64,000 nt of DNA. Source: Candidatus Nomurabacteria bacterium (lineage in GTDB: Bacteria > Patescibacteriota > Saccharimonadia > Saccharimonadales > Saccharimonadaceae). Below the pieces are notes generated by a model. The model had not been told where the DNA came from and searched no databases. It worked only from the letters and a program-made list of their open reading frames with translations. Below, in pieces: positions 11,196-58,786 of this stretch. The translations under genes and the position numbers were made by a program. Each line of letters begins with the position of its first letter. Position 1 is the stretch's first letter. Location of the stretch: positions 13,949-77,948 of the forward strand of contig JACKGP010000003.1 in the NCBI GenBank assembly GCA_020631935.1, given 5' to 3'.

Positions 11196-11744
11196 CTATT
11201 GTACGTTTATTCTACCGCGTCTAGCGCCACTGCTATCTTTAGCCATCTCGCTGCGGCGAGCTGTTAGGTGCTTCAAGACGATCTTTGCCTGGCTGGCGTA
11301 AGTATGCTTTCCACTAATTACCACTGCGTGTTCGCGTTCATGCGGTGGACTGAAGCGCTTGACTAAGGCATCAAATTCATCTGGACTAAGCAACTTTGAC
11401 TTACGTGTGCGTGATTTTGCGGTTGCTTGATCTACCTGTGTCCAGACAAAAAGCGGCGCATAGCCAGCATCACGTACGACTCGAGCTACTTCGGTGCGAT
11501 TGGCGCGAGTTTCGGTCGATAATTCTAAGACTAGTGATTGGCGAGTTTTTAGTAGCTCGGTCAGATACATATAGGCCAACTGGCCTGCTGCCTCTGGCGA
11601 GGCTGCGTATTTACTAATGGCTTGCAAATCGAGGTGAGGCGCGCCGAATGTTTCGGAAAATTTCGAAGCAAAGAAAGTTTTACCACTCCCCGGAATTCCT
11701 ACCATGATAATTGCATGCGGTTGATGCAAACTTAACTGATTCAT
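11196..11744 (-). CDS. P-loop ATPase/kinase (AAA_33-like)
   Basis: Walker A VGIPGSGKT. Start chosen at MNQLSL (ATG 11744), 8 nt after TATACT. The ORF track extends it to 11762. Confidence 0.65.
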   Translation of the reverse strand: MNQLSLHQPHAIIMVGIPGSGKTFFASKFSETFGAPHLDLQAISKYAASPEAAGQLAYMYLTELLKTRQSLVLELSTETRANRTEVARVVRDAGYAPLFVWTQVDQATAKSRTRKSKLLSPDEFDALVKRFSPPHEREHAVVISGKHTYASQAKIVLKHLTARRSEMAKDSSGARRGRINVQ

Positions 11745-11919: not shown

Positions 11920-11965
11920 TGACAGGTGCTCCAGGATGATTGCCGAACCTATTGTGGTATGATAT
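11920..11965 (-). repeat. degenerate copy of tRNA-Trp 3' end (copy A, outermost)
   Basis: TGACAGGTGCTCCAGGATGATTGCCGAACCTATTGTGGTATGATAT. It has about 4 mismatches to copy B and shares the CAGGA / CGAACCTA blocks with tRNA-Trp. Confidence 0.6.
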
Positions 11966-12055
11966 GAAAATATGAATTAGTGCACGGCGGGCAAGAAGCT
12001 CTCGCTCTCACTTTGACTCAAAGTTGAATACTTAATTTATGGCAGAACCGAATCG

Positions 12056-12590
12056 CTAAAACTCACTAGTCTTATCGGCCGTAATTTTATGGATTACTGA
12101 ATATAATTTACCGTAATCATGCCAGCTAAAATCACCCTCATTGCCACGATACCACAAACTAACAGGCAGATTTTCGTATGCGTTTGCAAGCGCGCTAATT
12201 TCTTTTGTGCTAAGTGCGATAATTTGTCTAACGTCATCACCCGGACGATAGGCAGAGTCACCTATGTTTACTCCAAAAAGGAAAGTCTCATTGTAAAATT
12301 CTTTTCCGGCTGTATCGATAGCCGAAGTATTAAATTGTGCGAGCGGCGTAAATTGCTCAGGGCTTATCGCTAGACCAAGTTCTTCTTCTAGTTCTCATGA
12401 CGCAGCTAGAAGAATATCCTCGTCTTCATCGATCCCGCCGCCAAGTAGCCGCGTAATCCCTGTAGGGAAAAACGCAGGTTTTGCACCGGTCAAAATTTTT
12501 TCCGATTCATCTTTGACTGCAATTAGTACACATTGTTTACGATAAAGATTACCGAATGCTTGATCGACCTTTAGGCTTAGGTCTATGGTA
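12056..12590 (-). pseudogene. NUDIX hydrolase pseudogene (in-frame TGA, no start codon)
   Basis: Minus-strand translation ...GITRLLGGGIDEDEDILLAAS*ELEEELGL... is a Nudix box. TGA (12395-12397) sits at the invariant Arg position. The frame is open from 12590 but has no ATG/GTG/TTG. Confidence 0.7.
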
Positions 12591-12660
12591 TCTATTTTAT
12601 TTCTCCACTAACAATAACTGGTCTATTTTCTATTTAACCACAATTTTGTAATATTAACGC

Positions 12661-12700
12661 CAAAGTAAAACACCAAGCTAGAGCCTGGTGTTTTACTTTG
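12661..12700 (-). terminator. 16-bp hairpin downstream of repeat copy C
   Basis: CAAAGTAAAACACCAG-type stem (CAAAGTAAAACACCA...CTGGTGTTTTACTTTG). Its position relative to copy C mimics the tRNA-Trp terminator. Confidence 0.4.
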
Positions 12701-12745
12701 GCAGAGGCTAAAGGATAATTATTGAATTTATTGTGGTATAGTATC
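12699..12745 (-). repeat. degenerate copy of tRNA-Trp 3' end (copy C, AT-decayed)
   Basis: TGGCAGAGGCTAAAGGATAATTATTGAATTTATTGTGGTATAGTAT aligns without gaps to copies A and B. Confidence 0.5.
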
Positions 12746-12766
12746 TTTCTCGGGATGAGGTGACTA

Positions 12767-13257
12767 TTAAATACGATAGGGTTTTGCAATAAATGGTCGC
12801 TTACCAATCTCTCGGAGAATCAGATCTCGTAGGATCTCGGATTTATTCTTGCCGGTGATGTGCGCTTGATGCTTTAAATAGGCGTTGATCTCTGGATTTA
12901 TAAAGAAGTTAAGACGCATGTCTTTTTTATGAATCTTATTTTCGTCAATAAACGCCCCTATTACTGCACGAAGACTATCTGTATCATATTGCTTAACAGT
13001 AACAAGATTATCGAAATCAGGGCTGATACCATTTTTAAACTCGTATTGGTAGATAAGGCGTCTTTGCGTATCATGATTAGTACCGGCTTCTTAAGCTGGA
13101 CCGCAGTGGCTATTTTATACCCGACAGAAAGACTTTCCTCTGTCGCTTCTACGATGACAAGATCTGCCCTAGCGAGTGTTCGTAGATCCTTTTTAGTGAC
13201 GATGGTTCTGCTGCTACATCTAACAAAAATGGTATAAAAAACTGATATAATAACCAC
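12767..13257 (-). pseudogene. frameshifted, N-terminally truncated nucleoside 2-deoxyribosyltransferase/DNPH1-like gene running into a ribbon-helix-helix segment
   Basis: Frame 1 gives ...ARADLVIVEATEESLSVGYKIATAVQLKKPVLIM. After a frameshift near 13000 a second frame gives YEFKNGISPDFDNLVTVKQYDTDSLRAVIGAFIDENKIHKKDMRLNFFINPEINAYLKHQAHITGKNKSEILRDLILREI (RHH-like; the ATG at 12919 could start a separate 50-aa ORF). Confidence 0.5.
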
Positions 13258-13272
13258 AGGAGGAGCCTACCC

Positions 13273-14043
13273 ATGATGCTAATCTTTATCAGCCTTATAG
13301 TCACACTTATTATCAATTTTTTGCTATTTTTCGTTGCGTTCAAGCGTCAGTCTGACAAACTGACTGATTTTGCCTATTCACTTAGTTTTATTATTGTGAC
13401 TCTCTATGTTCTCCTCGTGACGTCACAACACTCGTTGCCACTCGTGATCATGAGCCTCATGGTCATCGCTTGGGCTTTACGGCTCGGTATATTTTTGGTC
13501 TACCGAATTCGTAAATCAGGCAAAGATGCTCGGTTCGACGAAATTCGCAGCCATTTTGGCCAATTTTTGAAATTTTGGCTTGGGCAAGGAGTTGTGGCGT
13601 GGTTTTTGCTTTTGCCACTTTTGTTCGTAGCGCTAAATGATAAAGCAGCTATCTCGCCCCTTTTCTGGGTCGGATGTATCATCTGGCTCATTGGCGTCAG
13701 CGTAGAATCTGTAGCTGATATCCAGAAATATCGTTTCAACCAAAATCCGAAAAATAAAGGCACTTGGATCGATAGCGGCGTCTGGAAATACAGTCGGCAC
13801 CCAAATTATTTTGGCGAGATTTGCGTCTGGGTTGGTATGTACGTGGCAGCTTTTGCTTCGTTGACGGTCCTTGAGCGCGTCATTGGCGTCGCCAGCCCAG
13901 TCGCCATCGCGATTAGCCTGCTGTTTATATCTGGCATACCGATTTTAGAAAAATCAGCCGACAAACGGTGGGGCGGACAAAAAGCCTACCAAGCGTATAA
14001 GCGCCGCACCAGTATCCTCATACCGCTATGGCGAAAAAAGTAG
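13273..14043 (+). CDS. DUF1295/steroid 5-alpha-reductase-like polytopic membrane protein
   Basis: 256 aa with an AGGAGG SD, multiple TM helices and a WKYSRHPNYFGEICVW motif. Confidence 0.65.
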   Translation: MMLIFISLIVTLIINFLLFFVAFKRQSDKLTDFAYSLSFIIVTLYVLLVTSQHSLPLVIMSLMVIAWALRLGIFLVYRIRKSGKDARFDEIRSHFGQFLKFWLGQGVVAWFLLLPLLFVALNDKAAISPLFWVGCIIWLIGVSVESVADIQKYRFNQNPKNKGTWIDSGVWKYSRHPNYFGEICVWVGMYVAAFASLTVLERVIGVASPVAIAISLLFISGIPILEKSADKRWGGQKAYQAYKRRTSILIPLWRKK

Positions 14044-14321
14044 AAGTCGATGAGCAATATCAGACGGGCTATGGCTACGAGCTAAGTGAGCCGGTTGGTC
14101 AAAATTTTCGTGATGATTTTAAACCCGAACTGACGCCGCAGCAAATGTTGCAGCTCGGTGTATTTGGCGGAGATTATTTCAAGGAAGTGCCTTCGGAATT
14201 TCCAGCGGACTGGTTTGAAGGGGTCGAACTTTTTAACAGAGGCGGAGGTAATATGAAAAATTTAGATTTCAATATAACAATAAACCGCAACAGGGGTCGC
14301 GGTTCTATCATTTTACATTAA
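14028..14321 (+). CDS. conserved hypothetical protein, probably 3'-truncated fragment
   Basis: 97 aa. LTPQQMLQLGVFGGDYFKEVPSEFPADWF resembles the N-terminal half of a longer conserved family. The tail (NRNRGRGSIILH) runs into repeat copy D. Confidence 0.4.
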   Translation: MAKKVEVDEQYQTGYGYELSEPVGQNFRDDFKPELTPQQMLQLGVFGGDYFKEVPSEFPADWFEGVELFNRGGGNMKNLDFNITINRNRGRGSIILH

Positions 14322-14338
14322 CAGAGAACAAAGATTCT

Positions 14339-14378
14339 TGGCAGGGGTACATAGATGAAGATAGAACTTTTTACTCAG
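14339..14378 (-). repeat. degenerate copy of tRNA-Trp 3' end (copy D)
   Basis: TGGCAGGGGTACATAGATGAAGATAGAACTT. The first 11 nt are identical to the tRNA-Trp 3' terminus as read on the plus strand. Confidence 0.5.
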
Positions 14379-14428
14379 TTAATGAAAACGTTATTTTGGG
14401 GACGAGTAATATTTAGCTCTTGTCGTGA

Positions 14429-15163
14429 TTACTTGAGAGTAAATCCGCCGTCAACCGCTAGAACTTGCCCTGTTATAAAAGATGCATCTTGGCTTAGTAG
14501 GAATGCAATAGTGGCTGCAACTTCTTCGGGAGCGCCAATTCGTCTTATCACAGAGAGATCTGTCGTCCAGCTTGGGTCTTCGCCAGTACTGGTACTGAGC
14601 GGCGTATCTATAAGACCAGGTGCCACAGCGTTAACCCTCACAAGAGGCTCGTTAAACTTTCGAGCGAATGATTTCGTGAAAGAAATAATACCAGCTTTTG
14701 TAGCCGAGTATATTACACCGTACGGCTCACCTATTATTCCGTCGACGGACGTTAGATTAACGATTGACCCTGTTTGTGATGTCTCCTGGATGAGTCTGCC
14801 AAAAATTTTAAGCGATTTGAAGGTACCCTTAAGATTAACGTCGATAGTTCGACTGATATTTTCGTCACTAATATCATCAATTCCTGCAGGCGTCGGAAGG
14901 ACACCGGCATTGGCGACAAGGCAATCCAACTTTCCGAACTCGGAAACGATGAAGTCTTTTAAATTATGTAAGGCTACTTCGTCTGAAATATCGGCTGCAA
15001 AAAAGCGCACTCGATTCTTGTCTTCGAATTGCTCAAGTATAAAAGTGTCTTCATCGGTCGGAGAGTTTAGGACGACGGAAGCGCCGAGGGAATATAGTCT
15101 ATGCGCGGTTGCGAGCCCAATTCCCTGTGTGGATCCTGTAACTAATACGATTTTGTCTATCAT
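14429..15163 (-). CDS. short-chain dehydrogenase/reductase (SDR)
   Basis: [15 protein letters not shown] Rossmann motif and [13 protein letters not shown] (YxxxK). Start set at MIDKIVLV, 10 nt after TATAAT. Confidence 0.85.
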
Positions 15164-15380
15164 GGTTATACAAATTATACCAGAGGATAGATCATCGGTG
15201 CATACCAATACTAGTAACACTTCTCAGCATAATGATAGGTACATGTCAAAAGGAGCTAATGGAGTCGAATTCATCGACAGGGGTGATAGAAGTCGTAAAA
15301 CTAGAAAAATCATATCCGAAGATATGATTAACAGAGGCCGGTGGTTCTATCACCCTCAAATTAATACCTTGCAAATTTCG

Positions 15381-15427
15381 TGGCAGGGGCTTCAGGATGA
15401 TTACCGAACCTATTGTGGTGTAATATA
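15381..15427 (-). repeat. degenerate copy of tRNA-Trp 3' end (copy B)
   Basis: TGGCAGGGGCTTCAGGATGATTACCGAACCTATTGTGGTGTAATAT. The blocks TGGCAGGGG, CAGGA and CGAACCTA occur in the same order as in tRNA-Trp. Confidence 0.6.
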
Positions 15428-15625
15428 ATTTTCAAAGAAAAACAGGCCAGTTGTCCGGTACCTTAGGCTGATATCAGTGACATCAGACCAAGTCACTCGC
15501 ATTATTCAAGCGGATTTCCCCTGCTAAGGAGTGCGCTCTCCCTTGTTGATTACCCTACCGCTTCTCGACCTTGATGACGTGAACGCCGAGGCGCTCCATG
15601 TTCGAGAGTGTAGAGGTAAATGCAG

Positions 15626-15964
15626 CTATGCCAGCTCGAACTTGATGCCAATGACACCGTTCTTTTTCTGCTGGTCAAAGGAGTAGTACTCGTTGATTTG
15701 GCTTTCAAGCCATTCGACACTCTCACCGCCAAACTTTACTGTGCTGTTATGTGCGAAAAGATCGTGAAATGTTTCGTAGCGAAGTAGTCCAACGACTTTC
15801 ACGGAAACAGTCTGGTCGGTATTTTCTCGGTTAGTGAATGCAACGGCGTCACCAAGCTGGATAGTTTGGCGTTTCTCATCATAAAGTCTTGATTCGATTG
15901 TTTATGCGCCGGATGTAATAGAGTCAAATGGTACGGTGGCAAGTCGTAAGTGGTGTGTGTTCAT
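15626..15964 (-). pseudogene. ASCH-domain protein pseudogene (in-frame TAA)
   Basis: The translation reads MNTHHLRLATVPFDSITSGA*TIESRLYDEKRQTIQLGD...GVIGIKFELA. The TAA at 15902-15904 occupies the Lys of the GxKTxExR ASCH motif. Confidence 0.65.
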
Positions 15965-16194
15965 GTCTGACTGCTATCTTATCATTAAATGAGAGGCGTT
16001 CTCGTAGTTATGTTAATTTCGCTTCAAGGGTCTGGTCTTTAACAAATCTTTTCTATAAAGACTCTGGCGCACAGACTACCTATCGTTAGAAGATAAATAT
16101 AGCCACTCAAGAATTTCGACACCTTCATTAAAAAAAAGAGTAGTCGAAAAAAGATCCATTCACTATGACGTCAAGGTCGATATCACCCGGTTTG

Positions 16195-16431
16195 TCAGAG
16201 TAAATGTACGAACCGGCGATTGAGATGTGCAGACAGTTCATGCCAAGTGCCATATTTTTTATCAATAAAATCTAAGACAATTTGAAGATTTTCGTTAACG
16301 TGCTGTACACGTTTTAAAATCTCTTCACGTTTCGTCGTATTTGCCTTCTGGTACCAGAAATTATTAATTAAGTATTTTTCGATAAGTTCATTTTTACTGC
16401 TTAAATCAATAAATTCATCGGCAAATGTCAT
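16195..16431 (-). CDS. hypothetical protein
   Basis: 78-aa ORF with no recognisable motif. Confidence 0.35.
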   Translation of the reverse strand: MTFADEFIDLSSKNELIEKYLINNFWYQKANTTKREEILKRVQHVNENLQIVLDFIDKKYGTWHELSAHLNRRFVHLL

Positions 16432-16581
16432 AAGTGGGTAGTTTGCCTCAAACGGTAAGCTGTCTCTGCACGATATATCGGACCAAGCTGCCCTTTACTA
16501 GTCGATGAGGTCGTATATTGTTTTCTTGCTCTGGGCATGCTAGAGTAATAACATATAATTGAAATTATGCAATGAGTTAAT

Positions 16582-17442
16582 GTGCCCAAGCTATTACGTA
16601 TAACAGCATCCGACAAGCTCTATCTCCCAGGGCTTTTATACTGTGCTCACAACGATGCGAAAACACTATTCGTTTATGTACATGGTGCAGGCAGTTCATC
16701 AATCGTACGAAACACCCTTCTTTTTGAATCACTTTCTCAGACTTTCAACACTGCAGGTGCGGACCTACTAACCTTCATGAACCGTGGAGCTGGATACATC
16801 ACAAAGTTCGATACGGCTATGGGTAAATCACAACTTGGCGGTATGGCCTATGAGAAAATTAGCGATTTTATATACGATATTAAAGGAGTCGTAAGCTGGG
16901 CACGTGAACACAGGTATGAGAACGTATATCTACTTGGCCATTCGACCGGTGCTAATAAACTAGCGCTTGTAGCAGACTATATTAATAGACAAGAAGACAT
17001 CAAGGGCGTGGTGCTACTTGCTGGTGGTGATGATATTGCCTTGCAACGATCAGCACTTGACGATGCGCTCGTAGATATCCAAAGGCAAGCAGAAGAAGCG
17101 ATCTCTACATATCGAGATACTGAACTCGCTCCCATCAATACATTGCCCCACCCGATTAGCTGGCGCAGTCTTTACGAACTCATTACTGTTGATAGTGACT
17201 ACGATATTTTTCACTTCTCTAGGCGTGGTGACATGAAGCGTATACAAAAAACAACTAAACCAACCCTTGTAGTTTATGGCTCAGAGGATTTTGGTACTAT
17301 CATTAAACCTGCTATCGCAGTACGAGTGCTGGTTGAACAAAATAAACATATCGTAGGTACGATAATTAACGGTGCAGACCATAATTTTACCGGATACGAG
17401 ACGGAGTTGGCTAAAATTATCCTTGCAGGGGTTAAGGTGTAG
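16582..17442 (+). CDS. alpha/beta hydrolase
   Basis: 286 aa with a GTG start, the nucleophile elbow LLGHSTGAN (GxSxG) and an FVYVHGAGSS oxyanion region. Confidence 0.7.
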   Translation: MPKLLRITASDKLYLPGLLYCAHNDAKTLFVYVHGAGSSSIVRNTLLFESLSQTFNTAGADLLTFMNRGAGYITKFDTAMGKSQLGGMAYEKISDFIYDIKGVVSWAREHRYENVYLLGHSTGANKLALVADYINRQEDIKGVVLLAGGDDIALQRSALDDALVDIQRQAEEAISTYRDTELAPINTLPHPISWRSLYELITVDSDYDIFHFSRRGDMKRIQKTTKPTLVVYGSEDFGTIIKPAIAVRVLVEQNKHIVGTIINGADHNFTGYETELAKIILAGVKV

Positions 17443-17904
17443 TATACATGTCGGAACGAGTACCATTATTTGTGAACGCAGCAATATAAAATCAGGATTA
17501 TAGTCTTGATGAAAAGCCCTATAAAGCTACCGGAATAATAGCAGCGCGCGCCCTGAACTATTTGTCGGGAAATGATCAAAATGTGCACACCTGGAATACA
17601 GTAGGTGCCTTTAACGATAGCGCAGACACTACGGCGGAAGAGCGCCTAGCCGCGAAGTACAGTTCGGATTTTATACGGTGGCCGCATTGATATTCATCGC
17701 CTACGCGCGCATTGTACTTAACCGTGGCCGAGGATATTATCTAGGCGCATGTGTGAATGCATTGCTTGTCGAACACCTCAAGAACGTATAGCTGATACAG
17801 TTGATATATATTCAATTAAGTGTTAATATAGTGCACAAGACAGGCGACCCGCTTCGCCTTTGTGGATGGCCATCCCAAAAACTCTCGAGAGAAACGAGGA
17901 CAAA

Positions 17905-18153
17905 ATGGCCTGGTTGGATGGCAAGGAAGCCAAGGTGGAGCGCTCCGGCGGTACCATCAACGTCTACTACGGAGGATCCTTCTACCCCGATGGCCACGGC
18001 CACGGGCACGTGAAGGCCACCGGCGGCCCGCTCGGCGAGAACATCGTCTACTGGCGCCTGCCGGCGAACGAGGGCGGCCAGGTGATCGTCGACAACTCGT
18101 GGAACACCAAGAACGGCAACGACCTCCGTGACCACATGACCGGCTTCTACTGA
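17905..18153 (+). CDS. hypothetical 82-aa protein encoded in a foreign high-GC segment
   Basis: ATG preceded by GAGGA. Third codon positions are almost all G/C and the gene ends in TGA. The product MAWLDGKEAKVERSGGTINVYYGG...PDGHGHGHVKATGG... contains an HGHGH run. An upstream in-frame ATG at 17860 is possible. Confidence 0.55.
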   Translation: MAWLDGKEAKVERSGGTINVYYGGSFYPDGHGHGHVKATGGPLGENIVYWRLPANEGGQVIVDNSWNTKNGNDLRDHMTGFY

Positions 18154-18212
18154 GCCACCCGACCTGGACATGTCTTGAAACTGTCCGCTTTTAATTTGGT
18201 AAAATAGTAACA

Positions 18213-18605
18213 ATGAACGAAATATCTAAAGCAGTATATGACGCATTCCCTCAGCTTGTCTGCGCTGAGTTTCTTCGAAGCATGTCGCCACTTGTACCCC
18301 TGAAGCCAGATACTGTATTCAATATCTTCCTTACTGAAGATCAACACTTTCTAACTCTCGTTGCAACGGATTATGCCGATCCTAAGGCTCAAAGCAGCGA
18401 GCTAAAGAGTATCTCGGGAGAATACGAATTTGAATTCACTAATCTTCTTTCAACTAGCGGTAGCGACAAAACAATCGAGATTCTTGATCACGATGATATG
18501 AATGGTGACTTTTATATAAGTATGCCGTACAAAAACCACCGACTGTATTACTATGTCGCGAACACGAGCTCCGCTTTTGGTAAGATGCCAAAAGCGTCTG
18601 TGTAG
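18213..18605 (+). CDS. hypothetical protein
   Basis: 130-aa ORF in local low-GC composition. The ATG lies 7 nt after TGgTAAAAT. No recognisable motif. Confidence 0.45.
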   Translation: MNEISKAVYDAFPQLVCAEFLRSMSPLVPLKPDTVFNIFLTEDQHFLTLVATDYADPKAQSSELKSISGEYEFEFTNLLSTSGSDKTIEILDHDDMNGDFYISMPYKNHRLYYYVANTSSAFGKMPKASV

Positions 18606-18621
18606 CTTGTAGTCTTCGTTA

Positions 18622-19050
18622 TTAAAGCCGATCGATAACATCGAGTAACTGATCGGGGTCTTTGGTGAGATCGATCATAAAGAAATTATCTTGAGCTTCG
18701 TGCTTTTCAAGTTCGTCTAATTCCTCCGGCCACAAATCATCATCTACCCACATGAATGGTTGCGAGAAGTCGATACCCTCTGTCTTGAGATCTTTCCAAA
18801 CAGTCGGTTTTACTTTATCTAGTAGTGCAACTGTTTCGGGTTTGAGATGTGGCGCGAGTACCTCTTTGGCACGATTCTCCTCGTTCCAGTTATGGGTTGT
18901 TAGCCAATAGGTTGATTCAGGATACTTCTCTTTAATTACCTCAAGAGTCTTTGTGATGATGATATCCTAGAACCGATGGAGGTAAGCAAGGACGATACTA
19001 CACTTAACGGTTTCGATATTAGCAACAAAGTCTATCGTGTTTAAATGTTC
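18622..19050 (-). pseudogene. HAD-like (HAD_SAK-type) protein remnant with in-frame TAG and no start codon
   Basis: The translation reads ...LAYLHRF*DIIITKTLEVIKEKYPESTYWLTTHNWNEENRAKEVLAPHL...SQPFMWVDDDLWPEEL..., with the TAG at 18967-18969. The open frame begins right after the stop of the upstream S66 peptidase gene. Confidence 0.45.
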
Positions 19051-20142
19051 CTAATTAGAAAATAATGGTGAGGTAATAAAAAGCTTTTTCTTTGCGAGGT
19101 CTATTTCAGTTTCTGCATCATACGGCAGTATACAGTGTGGGTACGAGTGTCCATAGTTTACGTTGTAGAGTACAGGTAGATCGTGGCGATTGGCAACCTC
19201 CTGCCAAATATCTTTGTACTCTTCGTAGTAGACGTTGTCTTGGGGCTTACCAATAATAATACTTCTTAGACTGCCGAAGCTAATGTATTTACCTAGATAA
19301 TCAATCATGTACTGCATCCTGTCTGGAGCCGACAGGGCCTCGCTAGATTCTAAGAATAGTATCTTGTCGTTCCAGTCACGCCATTCAGGAAATATACCGT
19401 ACTTATTTATAATACTCGGCTGCTGCTTGTATCTTTCACCGGCCATCATCTCATACAAGCTTTCGATACAGCCTCCAAGCAACTTACCCTGTACCGACTG
19501 TCTGGCTGTTTGTCCTTGCAGTGTTTCGAAGCCAGTAGCTTCGTTAACCTTATCTCTGCTCGTACCTATCTGATCTTCCGAGTATTTGGTTCTCTTTTTA
19601 TACCAAGTAGGGCTAGACTCTATCTCTAGTCCGCTCTTGTCATTAAAGAACATATCTTGAAAGCAAGCTTTTGTATGAGACAGCATATTATTATCAAGCT
19701 CGCCGAAATCTGATAAGAAATCTACACCATAGAATGTCGGCATACCTATTTTGTAAAACATTAAGTGGTTATTGGTAGTATCAGAAAAACCAAGAAAAAT
19801 CTTCGGTCTTGTTTTGACAGCGTGAATAAACTCCTCGTCTTCCATCAGATAAGGAATTGTCTTGAAGGTGTCGTCACCTCCAGTAGCTACAATGATAGCT
19901 TTAATACTATCATCAAGCATTGCTTGCTTGAGATCGTCTGCTCGAGCTTCTGGGTGAGCGGACAAGTATTTCATACCCCGGAGAGAATTATCCATGTATT
20001 GCACATTCAATCCGAAGACGTCTAGTAGCCTTTTCTCGGCTATTTCTAACTGATGCTTAGCAAACTCTTCACCCAAGACACCAGAAGAAAGGCTAACGAC
20101 GGCAACGGTGTCACCACGAAGAAGTTTGACTGGTTTATTCAT
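19051..20142 (-). CDS. S66 family LD-carboxypeptidase / MccF-like serine peptidase
   Basis: GDTVAVVSLSSG N-terminus and the FLGFSDTTN nucleophile motif. Start set at MNKPVKLL, 7 nt after TACAAT. The ORF track extends it to 20178. Confidence 0.75.
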   Translation of the reverse strand: MNKPVKLLRGDTVAVVSLSSGVLGEEFAKHQLEIAEKRLLDVFGLNVQYMDNSLRGMKYLSAHPEARADDLKQAMLDDSIKAIIVATGGDDTFKTIPYLMEDEEFIHAVKTRPKIFLGFSDTTNNHLMFYKIGMPTFYGVDFLSDFGELDNNMLSHTKACFQDMFFNDKSGLEIESSPTWYKKRTKYSEDQIGTSRDKVNEATGFETLQGQTARQSVQGKLLGGCIESLYEMMAGERYKQQPSIINKYGIFPEWRDWNDKILFLESSEALSAPDRMQYMIDYLGKYISFGSLRSIIIGKPQDNVYYEEYKDIWQEVANRHDLPVLYNVNYGHSYPHCILPYDAETEIDLAKKKLFITSPLFSN

Positions 20143-20283
20143 AGCATCTATTGTAAGCAAGTAATTGCTTAGCTGCAACTGCAGTTACTAGAATCGGCAC
20201 CCTCCAACTGCCTGCCGTACTGTGCGGTGCGGCATGTATATTTCGTCTGAAATGGGTTCGAATGTAGCAGCATAGCTTCTTTT

Positions 20284-20323
20284 AACATAAATGATACACC
20301 TTTGACGGTGTATCATTTATGTT
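20284..20323. other. perfect 17-bp inverted repeat (hairpin)
   Basis: AACATAAATGATACACC, loop tttgac, GGTGTATCATTTATGTT. Confidence 0.8.
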
Positions 20324-20465
20324 GGTCGGGGTACTAGGAAATCGGCAGCAAGCTGTCTCCTCCGCTCACTCGCAAAAGAAAATACCTGATCAGGGGCATT
20401 AGGAGTACTAAGGTATGTCTGCGTCGCGCTCAGAAAAGTAAACTTTTCTGCCCTGCTCCTTGCTA

Positions 20466-20511
20466 TCGAACCTAGATCTTGCGCCAGCAAGCTGTCGCGA
20501 TCTAGGTTCGA
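20466..20511. other. long near-perfect hairpin (~21 bp)
   Basis: TCGAACCTAGATC...GATCTAGGTTCGA is a 13-bp perfect stem. It extends inward through GCG and CAGC/GCTG pairs to an AA loop. Confidence 0.75.
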
Positions 20512-20535
20512 CTCCGAGCAACTCCGAAGATATAG

Positions 20536-20565
20536 AAAAACGGTAACCAGATGGTTACCGTTTTT
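20536..20565 (-). terminator. intrinsic terminator after tRNA-Trp (bidirectional hairpin)
   Basis: AAAAACGGTAACC, loop agat, GGTTACCGTTTTT, 3 nt downstream of the tRNA 3' end. Confidence 0.8.
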
Positions 20566-20568
20566 CTA

Positions 20569-20644
20569 TGGCAGGGGTAGCAGGACTCGAACCTACGACA
20601 CCTGGTTTTGGAGACCAGTGCTCTACCAACTGAGCTATACCCCT
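20569..20644 (-). tRNA. trnW: tRNA-Trp (anticodon CCA), CCA end encoded
   Basis: The reverse complement AGGGGTATAGCTCAGTTGGTAGAGCACTGGTCTCCAAAACCAGGTGTCGTAGGTTCGAGTCCTGCTACCCCTGCCA folds as a 76-nt cloverleaf with anticodon loop CUCCAAA. Confidence 0.9.
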
Positions 20645-20776: not shown

Positions 20777-21964
20777 ATGAAACTATTGATGCTCGGCTGG
20801 GAATTGCCTCCACATAATAGTGGCGGCCTTGGTGTTGCGTGCTATCACATGGCAAAAGCGCTGGCAGCAAAAGGTACTGATATTGATTTCGTAGTTCCCT
20901 ATAGTGCTGGGCATAAAGAAATTGATTTCATGACAATTCATTCAACGTCTAGGCGGATTCCTGGCGGCAAGTACAGCCTTGGTGCATATGATCATATGTC
21001 TATCGATGGAATGCGCAAAGCTCAAAAGCAGTATGTTCGACATGTAGAAAAGATAATACAGGCTAATCCTAAAAAACATGAAGTTATTCACGCACACGAC
21101 TGGCTGACTGTTGAGGCTGGTATACGCGCCAAGGAATTGACAGGCGCTCCTCTGATCGTTCATATTCATGCTACCGAATTTGACAGAGCTGGTGGCACGC
21201 GCGGCAATCCGCTCGTACACGAGATTGAGGAACAGGGGCTATTGATGGCTGACAAGATTATTGCGGTAAGTAACATTACTAAGTGGATGATTGTTAAGCG
21301 TTATCAGATTCCAGCAAACAAGATTGAGGTAGTTCACAATGCTATAGATGTATCTTCCATGCCAGAGGTAAACCAGGATATTGAAACCTATCGCTATCTG
21401 AGATGGCTACAGGATGATGGCTACACTGTCGTCTCGGCGGTAACACGATTTACTATCCAAAAGGGTCTATTGCAGCTACTGCGCGGATTCGCAAAAGCCA
21501 CTACGCGCTACGACAAACTTGTCCTCTTATTGGTTGGCGACGGCGAACAGCGAGACGAGTTAATTAGAGCTAGTGCAGAGCTAGAGATTGCCGATAAAGT
21601 GTTCTTTACTGGCTTCGTTCGCGGCAGAAAATGGCGAGATGCCTACGGCTTGTCTGATGTATTCGTAATGAGCTCTATTTCTGAGCCGTTTGGACTAACG
21701 GCACTCGAGGCCGCCCACCACAGTAATGCCTTGATTATCTCAAAGCAGTCTGGCGTTGGTGAGGTTTTAGCAAATATATTACGATACGATTTTTGGGATG
21801 AGAGAAAGCTTGCCGATCAAATAGTCGCAGTTGCTTCATCGTCTGCCCTTAGAGACGAGCTGCGTAATAATATCGGCCGAGAGTATGCGCGCCTGAACTG
21901 GCGAGACGTAGCACAGAGCTGTATTCAGCTGTACGACGGGCTAAGAAGAGGGGTTGCAGCATAA
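20777..21964 (+). CDS. GT4-type glycosyltransferase, glycogen/alpha-glucan synthase-like
   Basis: 395 aa. The N-terminal LGWELPPHNSGGLGVA and the C-terminal GT-B fold motif (SISEPFGLTALEA) match. Confidence 0.7.
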   Translation: MKLLMLGWELPPHNSGGLGVACYHMAKALAAKGTDIDFVVPYSAGHKEIDFMTIHSTSRRIPGGKYSLGAYDHMSIDGMRKAQKQYVRHVEKIIQANPKKHEVIHAHDWLTVEAGIRAKELTGAPLIVHIHATEFDRAGGTRGNPLVHEIEEQGLLMADKIIAVSNITKWMIVKRYQIPANKIEVVHNAIDVSSMPEVNQDIETYRYLRWLQDDGYTVVSAVTRFTIQKGLLQLLRGFAKATTRYDKLVLLLVGDGEQRDELIRASAELEIADKVFFTGFVRGRKWRDAYGLSDVFVMSSISEPFGLTALEAAHHSNALIISKQSGVGEVLANILRYDFWDERKLADQIVAVASSSALRDELRNNIGREYARLNWRDVAQSCIQLYDGLRRGVAA

Positions 21965-27023: not shown

Positions 27024-27239
27024 TTCACCACCTTTCTTATCGCTGCAATCCATCATTAGTTACGCAGATTGAACAGTATTCATACTTACAATAGTAGCAT
27101 ACGCTTGCCCTAGATGCTATTATTTATGTGAAAGAACGTAGTCATAACTACTATTACTCACTTTCTTCTGTTTTGCCCACTTTGGCGAATCTAATCGCGT
27201 CGAGATGAACGGTTCGAGGCTTATTACAAATACCAAAGT

Positions 27240-27266
27240 AAAAACCATCGCTAGAGGATGGTTTTT
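27240..27266 (-). terminator. intrinsic terminator after tRNA-Tyr
   Basis: AAAAACCATC, loop gctagag, GATGGTTTTT, 4 nt downstream of the tRNA 3' end. Confidence 0.75.
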
Positions 27267-57668: not shown

Positions 57669-58178
57669 CTATTGGGAATAGCCAATACCACTCGGGCAAG
57701 TATACTCTTTACTGCCTCCAGATGATGAATAGTCCGCAGCTAACGTACACTCTTCTTTCGTAACCTCTCCGGTATGATCGATACTATATGCCCACCTGCC
57801 TTTGCCGATAAACAAGTAGAACTGGTCACTGCCGGGGGAGCTTCCTCCGTAACCTGCCAATGCCCCATTTCCCACTATCGGACAGTAGTTACCGCTGCTA
57901 TCCACCTCTCCCGGCTCTACACCGAATGCATCTTGGCAGCTATAGCCATTGCCCAGTGCACTAGATGGTTCAGGAAACTGCCCATTCGCAGCCTTATATT
58001 CCAGCAGCTTCTTTCTATTGTTAGTCAAGTCTACCCTGACAGATGCCTCATCCGCACGGTCTCTAATTCCGTTATATGAAACTACTGTTAAAGAGGCTAA
58101 TACCGCTATCACTACAATCACTATTAGGAGCTCCACAATAGTGAATGCACTGCGATAGTCTGTTCTAGAATTTATCAT
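57669..58178 (-). CDS. type IV pilin paralog 1
   Basis: MINSRTDYRSA/FTIVELLIVIVVIAVLA is a prepilin leader with Glu+5. The C-terminal domain has 4 Cys. Confidence 0.8.
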   Translation of the reverse strand: MINSRTDYRSAFTIVELLIVIVVIAVLASLTVVSYNGIRDRADEASVRVDLTNNRKKLLEYKAANGQFPEPSSALGNGYSCQDAFGVEPGEVDSSGNYCPIVGNGALAGYGGSSPGSDQFYLFIGKGRWAYSIDHTGEVTKEECTLAADYSSSGGSKEYTCPSGIGYSQ

Positions 58179-58240
58179 TTCGCTTATGATTATACTACAC
58201 TCGAGTAATTTTTGGACTACTTACCATGCAATAAATCAAG

Positions 58241-58753
58241 CTACTGCGAGTAGAGTGCGTTGTTTGAACTACATTGATATACTTTTGAATACCCAGTAAA
58301 AGCCGGAGGAGTTGAGACTTCAGAGCACTGCTCTTTGGTTATGGTGCCATCATCAGAAATAGTGTATCCGTACAGGCCCTTTCCTATGGTAAGCTTAAAG
58401 TTTTGTCTTGTATTACTAGTGACTCCGCTCGGGTGGTATGCTGCAAACGCTCCATTGCTGGCAATAGGACAATATATACTGCCGCTTACATCTCCCGGAT
58501 TGCCGGACTGACACTTGCCTTCAGATCGGGTGTAGGTAAAAGTCGGAGGAAACTCGCCGTTAATAGCCTTGTATTCAAGTAGCTTCTTTCGATTATTCAC
58601 TAAATCCGACCTAATCGCCGCATCATTTGCACGATCCCTGATTCCGTTATACGACACCACGGCCATAGCAGCTAGTATTGCTATGACTACAATCACCACA
58701 AGAAGCTCTACGATTGTAAATGCACTGCGGTAATTCGATCTAGAACTTATCAT
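58241..58753 (-). CDS. type IV pilin paralog 2
   Basis: MISSRSNYRSA/FTIVELLVVIVVIAILA. The first ~65 aa are nearly identical to paralog 1, the C-terminal domain is divergent, and both end in YSQ. Confidence 0.8.
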   Translation of the reverse strand: MISSRSNYRSAFTIVELLVVIVVIAILAAMAVVSYNGIRDRANDAAIRSDLVNNRKKLLEYKAINGEFPPTFTYTRSEGKCQSGNPGDVSGSIYCPIASNGAFAAYHPSGVTSNTRQNFKLTIGKGLYGYTISDDGTITKEQCSEVSTPPAFTGYSKVYQCSSNNALYSQ

Positions 58754-58786
58754 TTCGTTTATGATTATACTGCATAAGGCATATAT

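Follow-up and report, generated by a model that had tools for sequence, protein, structure and literature searches.

Why does the region downstream of a tRNA-Trp gene hold several repeats that begin like the 3'-end of that tRNA, with accessory and broken genes lying between them? The question is raised by a window of 64,000 bps (the whole stretch of DNA analysed, positions 13,949 to 77,948 of contig JACKGP010000003.1, labelled Candidatus Nomurabacteria), in which ARAGORN and Rfam (71 bits) agree with the preliminary description of the sequence in placing tRNA-Trp(CCA) on the minus strand at 20569-20644. This description took four sequences in the same orientation, at 11920, 12699, 14339 and 15381, to be decayed copies of the tRNA 3'-end left behind by repeated site-specific integration. 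We consider it highly probable that the interval between tRNA-Trp and the AAA_33 kinase-like gene (11196-11744, minus strand) is an integration hotspot for mobile elements of Saccharibacteria, which insert at the 3'-end of tRNA-Trp by means of a large serine recombinase (LSR). The four sequences themselves are not decayed tRNA ends. They are a conserved arm borne by the elements, and what they have in common with the tRNA is the short core TGGCAGGGG and the putative recombinase-recognition blocks.

Three of the four sequences form one family of 46-nt direct repeats (family D2 of the repeat finder, 72-87% identity), and we call its members E1 (11920-11965), E2 (12699-12744) and E3 (15381-15426), all of them on the plus strand. 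E3 has the intact core TGGCAGGGG followed by the element arm (P' type) and is the left boundary of the youngest unit of the island. E1 and E2 are decayed, with the cores TGACAGGTG and TGGCAGAGG respectively, and E1, which lies 175 nt from the start of the AAA_33 gene, is the outermost boundary of the island. A profile built from relatives gave 61 bits for 15381, 50 for 11920 and 39 for 12699 (nhmmer), and pattern searches of the whole window found no copy beyond these three, 0 being expected by chance. The fourth sequence (14339-14385, plus strand) has the exact core and then TACATAGATGAAGATAGAACTT; the main-type profile does not recover it (E>10) and on its own it aligns over the 9-mer only. 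However, it is homologous (84% over 43 nt, E=1.8e-6) to a sequence in another genome, L007:1015 (TGGCAGGAGTTCCTGGATGAAGATAGAGCTT; loci of other genomes are given by such L numbers), which has a hairpin before it and a ribosome-binding site and an ATG after it. Therefore, 14339 is a genuine site with a variant arm, and the same-orientation repeats of the preliminary description are real. Some details needed correction: GGTTCTATCA, said to lie 40 nt to the left of both 14339 and 15381, is actually 36 nt away at both. The 16-bp hairpin reported next to 12699 is present, and the terminator scan gave a hairpin of 16-20 bp abutting E2 (12654-12697), of a left-arm type also met abutting tRNA-Trp. We also observed that the region of this hairpin (12649-12693) is 71% identical to the terminator of tRNA-Tyr in the same window (27222-27266), a match that includes an exact run of 11 nt and the loop GCTAGAG.

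Past the 9-nt core, the motif is not specifically similar to tRNA-Trp when only the window is considered. The alignment score was 22 against tRNA-Trp and 24 against tRNA-Thr(TGT), the background within the window being 11 +/- 2.6. The four sites have only 9-10 nt in common with the tRNA and are not duplications of its 3' segment. Since the likeness within the window is this weak, the case had to be decided with other genomes.

A scan of one genome per GTDB species with a 20-base pattern taken from the repeat gave 20 loci, of which 17 are labelled Saccharibacteria or Saccharimonadia, 2 are unlabelled metagenome-assembled genomes with the same synteny and 1 is a chance match in a coding region of Tissierellia. 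The JGI metagenomes added 17 further loci, and there was no copy in viral contigs. The consensus, TGGCAGGGGCTTCAGGATGATTACCGAACCTATTGTGGTGTAATA, is around 95% conserved in 19 of the GTDB genomes and in the 17 metagenome contigs, nearly all of them of Saccharibacteria. Its limits are sharp: in 36 distinct copies the positions before the first T of the core carry practically no information, and the 45 nt that follow carry about 2 bits each. The relatives have 1-3 copies per genome, all of them at the AAA_33 / tRNA-Trp locus and in the same orientation, and the profile search found arrays of two or three copies in L008, L013, L017, L021 and L042. The only tRNA near the motif is tRNA-Trp (L007, L008, L014, L039, L045 and L053), at a distance of 0.7-5.3 kb and in the same orientation as in the window, as expected for attL/attR. 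With no further copies in the 64 kb and all the copies of relatives at this one locus, the dispersed repetitive extragenic palindromic or promoter element that had been named as the refuting outcome was not found. The motif is missing in two of the backbone relatives, L051 (related to RAAC3) and L052, where only 2.4 and 4.1 kb respectively separate tRNA-Trp from AAA_33. These two are the nearest approach to the empty site that the preliminary description had proposed to look for: they are free of the motif, but there is still DNA between both genes.

The flanks of the core are exchanged between the tRNA and the motif. To the left of TGGCAGGGG there is usually a hairpin terminator, belonging to a small set of types. 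The tRNA flank of L014 matches the motif flanks of L045, L035, L021 and L017, the tRNA flank of L008 matches those of L033, L016, L004 and L013, and the tRNA flank of L007 matches one motif flank of L008. The local alignment scores of these flank pairs were 17-40, whereas 420 comparisons gave a median of 6 and a 95th percentile of 10. Likewise, the junction between the LSR end and the tRNA in L022 matches the junction between the LSR end and the motif in L036, and their left arms are 90% identical. A left flank that adjoins the tRNA in some genomes and the motif in others is the hallmark of site-specific recombination. All four junction types (P/P', B/B', B/P' and P/B') were seen, with arms common between contexts: LSR end and tRNA in L022 and others, LSR end and motif in L036, hairpin and motif in many loci, and hairpin and tRNA in L007, L008 and L014. 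On the right side, 16 pairs of loci were at least 85% identical in the 250 nt after the motif and at background level before it, and the converse was found in no pair. Each insertion leaves a hybrid junction far from the tRNA, made of DNA that was formerly downstream of the tRNA (a hairpin terminator or the end of the previous element), the 9-nt core TGGCAGGGG and the element arm CTTCAGGATGATTACCGAACCTATTGTGGTGTAATA. Thus, repeated site-specific integration at the 3'-end of tRNA-Trp stands as it had been proposed, on the common geometry of six loci, the flank exchange, the sharp boundary at the core, the one-sided pairs and the motif-free L051 and L052.

Regarding the enzyme, one family of open reading frames (ORFs) beside the motif is an LSR that has Resolvase and Recombinase domains. 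Its homologues number more than 1000, and many of these have a Zn-ribbon as well. Exact protein look-up placed the LSR gene abutting or overlapping tRNA-Trp in eight contexts (L022, L023 and L026-L031). The gene, whose end reads ...TATCCTGTT/TGGCAGGGG..., extends over about 57 nt of tRNA-Trp on the opposite strand; a conserved DUF3768 / DUF7249 / Replic_Relax module precedes it, and the cargo of the LSR-bearing elements includes BREX, Abi and metal-resistance genes. The tails of the protein record the junction. Among the 120 best homologues, 56 read W-Q-G and then the antisense translation of the tRNA, and 17 more stop within two residues of W-Q-G. The full-length proteins P0063 and P0118 read W-Q-x5-Y-R-T, which is the core and then CGAACC at the spacing of the motif, 5 nt further out. 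In L036 the last 68 codons of an LSR are joined directly to the motif. Furthermore, L009 (a whole contig of 7896 nt), L018 and L048, which belong to three assemblies, can be combined into one element with the motif, a PLD-like gene, a P-type ATPase and an LSR. The L009 contig is circularly permuted, because L018 bridges its end to its start, and in L004 a different hairpin precedes this cargo, which is 100% identical. The LSR gene is present in the relatives L009, L022-L031 and L048 and missing in the window, therefore we regard the window as a remnant of LSR elements and not as an intact member. In the cargo of the relatives (79 island ORFs screened, judged from the best 25 of 109 families) the LSR was the only recognised recombinase seen.

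Two further observations concern the neighbourhood of the motif. Directly to its right there is often a two-gene module coding for a PLD-like protein of 149-159 aa and a membrane protein of 169 aa (L004, L009, L011, L012, L013, L018, L019, L021 and others), followed in several loci by a HAD_SAK_2-like gene, of which the window keeps only a pseudogene (18625-18966). The PLD-like gene was considered as a recombinase and set aside, as many units, and the window too, do not have it and the only recognised recombinase seen was an LSR. In L040 the motif at 1366 shares a hairpin, just on its left, with a sequence in the opposite orientation that resembles a tRNA 3'-end (GGTTCAAACCCAATAATCCCTGCCA) and faces it; ARAGORN predicted no tRNA at that place.

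A comparison of both arms suggests how the exchange might proceed. The 3'-end of tRNA-Trp, which reads TGGCAGGGGTAGCAGGACTCGAACCTA on the plus strand and is overlapped by the LSR gene in relatives, is the chromosomal attachment site (B' arm). The element arm reads TGGCAGGGG-CTT-CAGGA-TGATTAC-CGAACCTA and the tRNA arm TGGCAGGGG-TAG-CAGGA-CT-CGAACCTA, with CGAACC at nucleotides 25-30 of the motif and 20-25 of the tRNA end, and both spacings also occur in the LSR tails. The insertion of about 5 nt that the preliminary description saw in the repeats is real, but it is not a product of tRNA decay: it equals the offset of 5 bp between the attachment sites of element (attP) and host (attB) in the motif read by the zinc-ribbon domain (ZD). 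According to Rutherford et al. (2013; PMC3783163), the ZD of serine integrases reads one motif in both attachment sites, and in attB this motif is 5 bp nearer to the centre than in attP. Here, only the right half-site shows this offset of the outer block. With an LSR 3'-end as the left arm there is also an inverted repeat of 6 bp (ATCCTG/CAGGAT) at +/-8-13 around the A/G step, and no symmetry is seen when the left arm is a hairpin.

On this basis we propose that the LSR, which would be encoded at the tRNA-proximal end of intact elements with a reading frame running through the core, catalyses the exchange of attP and attB within TGGCAGGGG, probably at the A/G step. Its recombinase domain (RD) would read CAGGA(T) on both arms, with binding expected at the +/-8-13 inverted repeat, and its ZD would read CGAACC, which belongs to the T-loop coding sequence and is placed 5 bp more distant from the centre in the element arm than in that of the tRNA. 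The final 12 nt of the conserved arm resemble an extended -10 box (TGGTGTAAT / TGGTATAAT), followed in many loci by TTTTTC, a ribosome-binding site and an ATG. Thus, as far as the sequence can tell, the end of the arm may be a promoter that reads into the element and drives its first genes.

Several observations weigh against this reading. There is no LSR in the 64 kb window, where tblastn with three LSRs returned only a relic of a read-through tail (20410-20499); this agrees with the earlier statement that no integrase survives there, as do the families of the window ORFs. Most motif-bounded islands of relatives lack a recombinase too, and L036 carries no more of an LSR than the 68 codons mentioned. 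No single contig showed a complete element, which would have the motif at one end and LSR and tRNA at the other: no motif was reached within the left flank of 10 kb of the LSR-bearing elements L022-L031, because these elements are longer than that flank. The strict predicted attP pattern (CCNGTT, core and motif) was not found in metagenome contigs, and the actual junction of L036 reads CTGGTT. The left half-site is a variable hairpin without conserved sequence, unlike canonical serine-integrase sites. To our knowledge, canonical LSRs do not integrate into an occupied attR, therefore the tandem stacking needs an extra assumption, for instance that the hairpin brought by each element might recreate a usable site. 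A sigma-70 scan calls no -10-like box in the motif, passing over it because there is no -35. Finally, there are true partial duplications of the tRNA, which the LSR model does not produce. Two of them are in the window, on the plus strand, and had been missed in the earlier count of tRNA-end copies: relic A (20323-20344, TGGTCGGGGTACTAGGAAATCG), a true decayed 3'-end of tRNA-Trp, and relic B (T-CAGGGGCATTAGGAGT, around 20390-20406). The third is in L051, a genome without the motif, where a decayed 3'-end of its own tRNA-Trp (CGGCAGGGGCAGCAGGATCTGAATGGAC, reverse-complement coordinate 12756) lies 171 nt downstream of the tRNA; this may be the scar of a different type of integration event.

These duplications speak in favour of a tyrosine-integrase island that carried a copy of the tRNA 3'-end, the four sites then being displaced tRNA ends that decayed independently. 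The geometry would also fit, and some such events are possible given the copies at 20323-20344, around 20390 and in L051. Nevertheless, for the four listed sites this explanation is largely refuted and we judge it very improbable. The sites match the cross-genome consensus far better than the host tRNA, they have CTT at the acceptor positions after the core where the tRNA of the window has TAG, and independent decay cannot give them a shared offset of 5 nt. Moreover, there is no tyrosine recombinase among the window ORFs, and the enzyme beside tRNA-Trp in relatives is an LSR, not the tyrosine integrase that the preliminary description had expected there. We hold it to be improbable, too, that a conserved promoter or regulatory site of the chromosome accounts for the motif and that natural transformation together with homologous recombination swapped the islands, the motif and the tRNA being the homology anchors and no dedicated recombinase taking part. 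The end of the motif, with its resemblance to an extended -10 box and the start signals that often follow it, would suit a promoter; most islands have no recombinase; and homologous exchange also gives a sharp identity boundary at a conserved anchor. Saccharibacteria are, in addition, naturally competent (PMC12857230). However, to join one left arm either to the tRNA or to the motif, homologous exchange would have to occur within 9 nt of identity, and the presence of the LSR 3'-end next to the tRNA in L022 and next to the motif in L036 is not explained, nor are the arrays of 2-4 sites or the circularly permuted LSR element with the motif. Nor is the motif a fixed feature of the chromosome, as L051 and L052 are without it.

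Read on the minus strand, the motif is ...TAGGTTCGGTAATCATCCTGAAGCCCCTGCCA and then a hairpin, which resembles a T arm and an acceptor end. It might be the 3'-end of a gene for a tRNA-like or small RNA, with CCA as its last bases and a terminator behind them. We give this almost no credence, since there is no Rfam match at E<=1, the folding z-scores are near 0 on both strands, a conserved 5' half is missing, the T loop would have 12 nt and the sequences to the right are unrelated groups; the RNA gene was rejected, as folding gave no signal. The integration by an LSR at the 3'-end of tRNA-Trp is the explanation that we retain. A bolder version of it, which we regard as possible but rather unlikely, is a gene-capture platform similar to an integron: each element would bring its own hairpin left arm, the tRNA-proximal junction would again be hairpin, core and tRNA, and short recombinase-less units of 0.25-5 kb could pile up, each preceded by an outward-facing promoter that lies in the conserved arm, the LSR acting in cis or in trans. 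If true, this would be a phylum-wide cassette-accretion system at a single site, and the LSR, the 46-nt arm and the tRNA-Trp site could be directly usable as an integration tool.

At least three or four insertions are stacked in the window, and their contents are largely decayed. As had been noted before, what lies between the flanks is accessory or broken: pseudogenes of NUDIX, ASCH and HAD-like genes, an SDR, an alpha/beta hydrolase, an S66 peptidase and an ORF of 62% GC. The older units (11966-15324) hold, from left to right, the NUDIX pseudogene (12059-12607, minus; Pfam), unassigned gene fragments (12770-13266, minus), a DUF1295 gene (13273-14043, plus; Pfam), ORF97 (14028-14321, plus) and the SDR (14429-15164, minus; Pfam). 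The stretch that abuts E3 on its left (15325-15380, plus) is a candidate for the P arm. It matches the LSR 3'-end of L027 in register at 28 of 56 positions, with a null probability of about 0.001, and is probably a relic of the 3'-end of an LSR gene. A profile search with LSR 3'-ends did not detect the left flanks of 15381 and 14339, and the count of in-register identities between the left flank of 14339 and LSR 3'-ends was at background level.

The youngest unit (15427-20285; described from Pfam, tblastn and the identity to L005) comprises the ASCH pseudogene (15629-15970, minus; Pfam), the alpha/beta hydrolase (16582-17442, plus; Pfam), the 62% GC ORF (17905-18153, plus), ORF130 (18213-18605, plus), the HAD_SAK_2-like pseudogene mentioned above (minus; Pfam) and the S66 peptidase (19051-20160, minus; Pfam). 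The 62% GC ORF has 82 codons in a genome of 43% GC; it had no Pfam match and no tblastn match against plasmids, and it may be foreign, for example from the host bacterium. Exact-protein look-ups of the S66 peptidase, ORF130 and the DUF1295 protein found no match outside the source contig. From 15381/15382 rightward, the 1103 nt that can be compared before the L005 locus ends have 97.8% identity between the window and L005, whereas the left flanks are unrelated and the backbone proteins of both (AAA_33, YgjP, histidine kinase and SecE) are just 42-49% identical. This must therefore be a recent exchange between distant lineages with its edge at the core. The outer sites are decayed, and the innermost unit is of recent origin yet already contains pseudogenes. 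As the window has only relics and no recombinase, it is largely a fossil composite island. The term fossilised, used in the preliminary description, is right in that no recombinase is left, but the island is not uniformly old, as the identity to right of 15381 makes clear.

Between the youngest unit and the tRNA there are further remains. A T2-type hairpin (20286-20321, plus) precedes relic A, and blastn matched the region 20286-20344 to hairpin/tRNA and hairpin/motif junctions of L014, L035 and L033. Then a segment on the plus strand (20385-20514; blastn, and tblastn of the LSR read-through tail) contains an LSR-end-like CCTGA, relic B and a spacer that is homologous to the segment after the LSR in L009 and L018 (82-83% over 94-127 nt, blastn). 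This spacer of about 130 nt is 82% conserved among the window (20385-20514), L009 (7700-7896), L018 (747-873) and L039 (4076-4258); it comes after a 19-nt fragment of the tRNA-Trp end and holds a CTTGC-GCCA-GCAAG hairpin. The hairpin terminator that abuts the 3'-end of tRNA-Trp (20534-20567, by direct reading) is the present left arm of the tRNA junction.

Both flanks of the island are core genes, as had been stated, for they are kept in relatives. From left to right the window has nusG, secE, a histidine kinase, a YgjP-like gene and AAA_33, all on the minus strand, then the repeats with the accessory or broken genes, then tRNA-Trp and a GT5/GT4 glycosyltransferase (20777-21964, plus). In relatives the motif is found just past the block secE - histidine kinase - YgjP - AAA_33 (- F10), adjoining AAA_33 as it does here, and a GT5 - GH57 - GH15 block follows tRNA-Trp, as in the window. 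A search of 9-29 kb of the window against Rfam (E<=1) gave four tRNAs and nothing else. In L023 and L026 we observed a different arrangement, tRNA-Trp with its LSR element being inverted with respect to the AAA_33 / YgjP / secE / nusG block. There the backbone is faced by the 5' side of the tRNA instead of its 3' side, which would fit an inversion of the whole segment of island plus tRNA.

Among known systems, the closest analogue for the stacking and for the recombinase-less cassettes is the staphylococcal cassette chromosome (SCC/SCCmec), whose composite islands lie at the 3'-end of rlmH (orfX) in staphylococci and depend on the Ccr large serine recombinases. The likeness includes the insertion by a serine recombinase at the 3'-end of a housekeeping gene, tandem accretion, diverse accessory cargo and pseudo-cassettes without recombinase, bounded by repeated integration-site sequences. 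However, the target gene, the host phylum and the lineage of the recombinase are others, the present repeat bears a long conserved element arm and not a copy of the target end, and the system described here is known from sequence alone. Tyrosine-integrase islands and integrative and conjugative elements at tRNA genes (P4-like elements; the phe-tRNA symbiosis island) are similar in the insertion at a tRNA 3'-end, the position of the island on the 3' side, the tandem islands and the fossil remnants. They differ in the class of the recombinase and in their repeats, as those of the window are not duplications of the tRNA 3'-end and the identity with the tRNA is just 9-10 nt. Characterised serine integrases mostly target protein-coding genes, whereas here the target is the 3'-end of a tRNA; unlike in those systems, the recombinase ORF crosses the crossover core into the antisense of the tRNA, only one half-site is conserved while the other is a variable hairpin or an LSR 3'-end, and the sites occur in arrays. 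Nevertheless, the present system resembles the attP/attB systems of serine integrases (Listeria A118/LI, phiC31 and Bxb1) in the Resolvase, Recombinase and Zn-ribbon architecture, in attachment sites of about 45 nt with a very short common core, and in similar blocks on the element and host arms, the outer block being 5 bp nearer to the centre on the host arm (PMC3783163).

The class of mechanism, serine-integrase elements, is already known and the window itself is an ordinary decayed composite island, although a literature search found no account of serine-recombinase elements at tRNA-Trp in Saccharibacteria. The mobile elements of these ultra-small, host-dependent bacteria are poorly described, and the data define a tRNA-Trp attachment site, a 46-nt element arm and an LSR family with more than 1000 homologues. 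Near-identical island DNA beside backbone proteins of less than 50% identity indicates that horizontal transfer is still going on in these bacteria, whose genomes are very small. With its sites mapped, a serine integrase would also be a ready candidate for site-specific integration in Saccharibacteria, which have recently become genetically tractable.

Some minor observations concern the source of the sequence. The synteny and all the motif-bearing relatives point to Saccharibacteria as the lineage of the window, despite the Nomurabacteria label. For the AAA_33 protein (P0121) the next-best homologue is just 61% identical, therefore none of the sequenced genomes of the collection is closely related to the source lineage. 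Outside the island and unrelated to it, the window also contains a direct repeat of 228 nt (57972-58199 and 58547-58774), whose copies are 74% identical and 575 nt apart.

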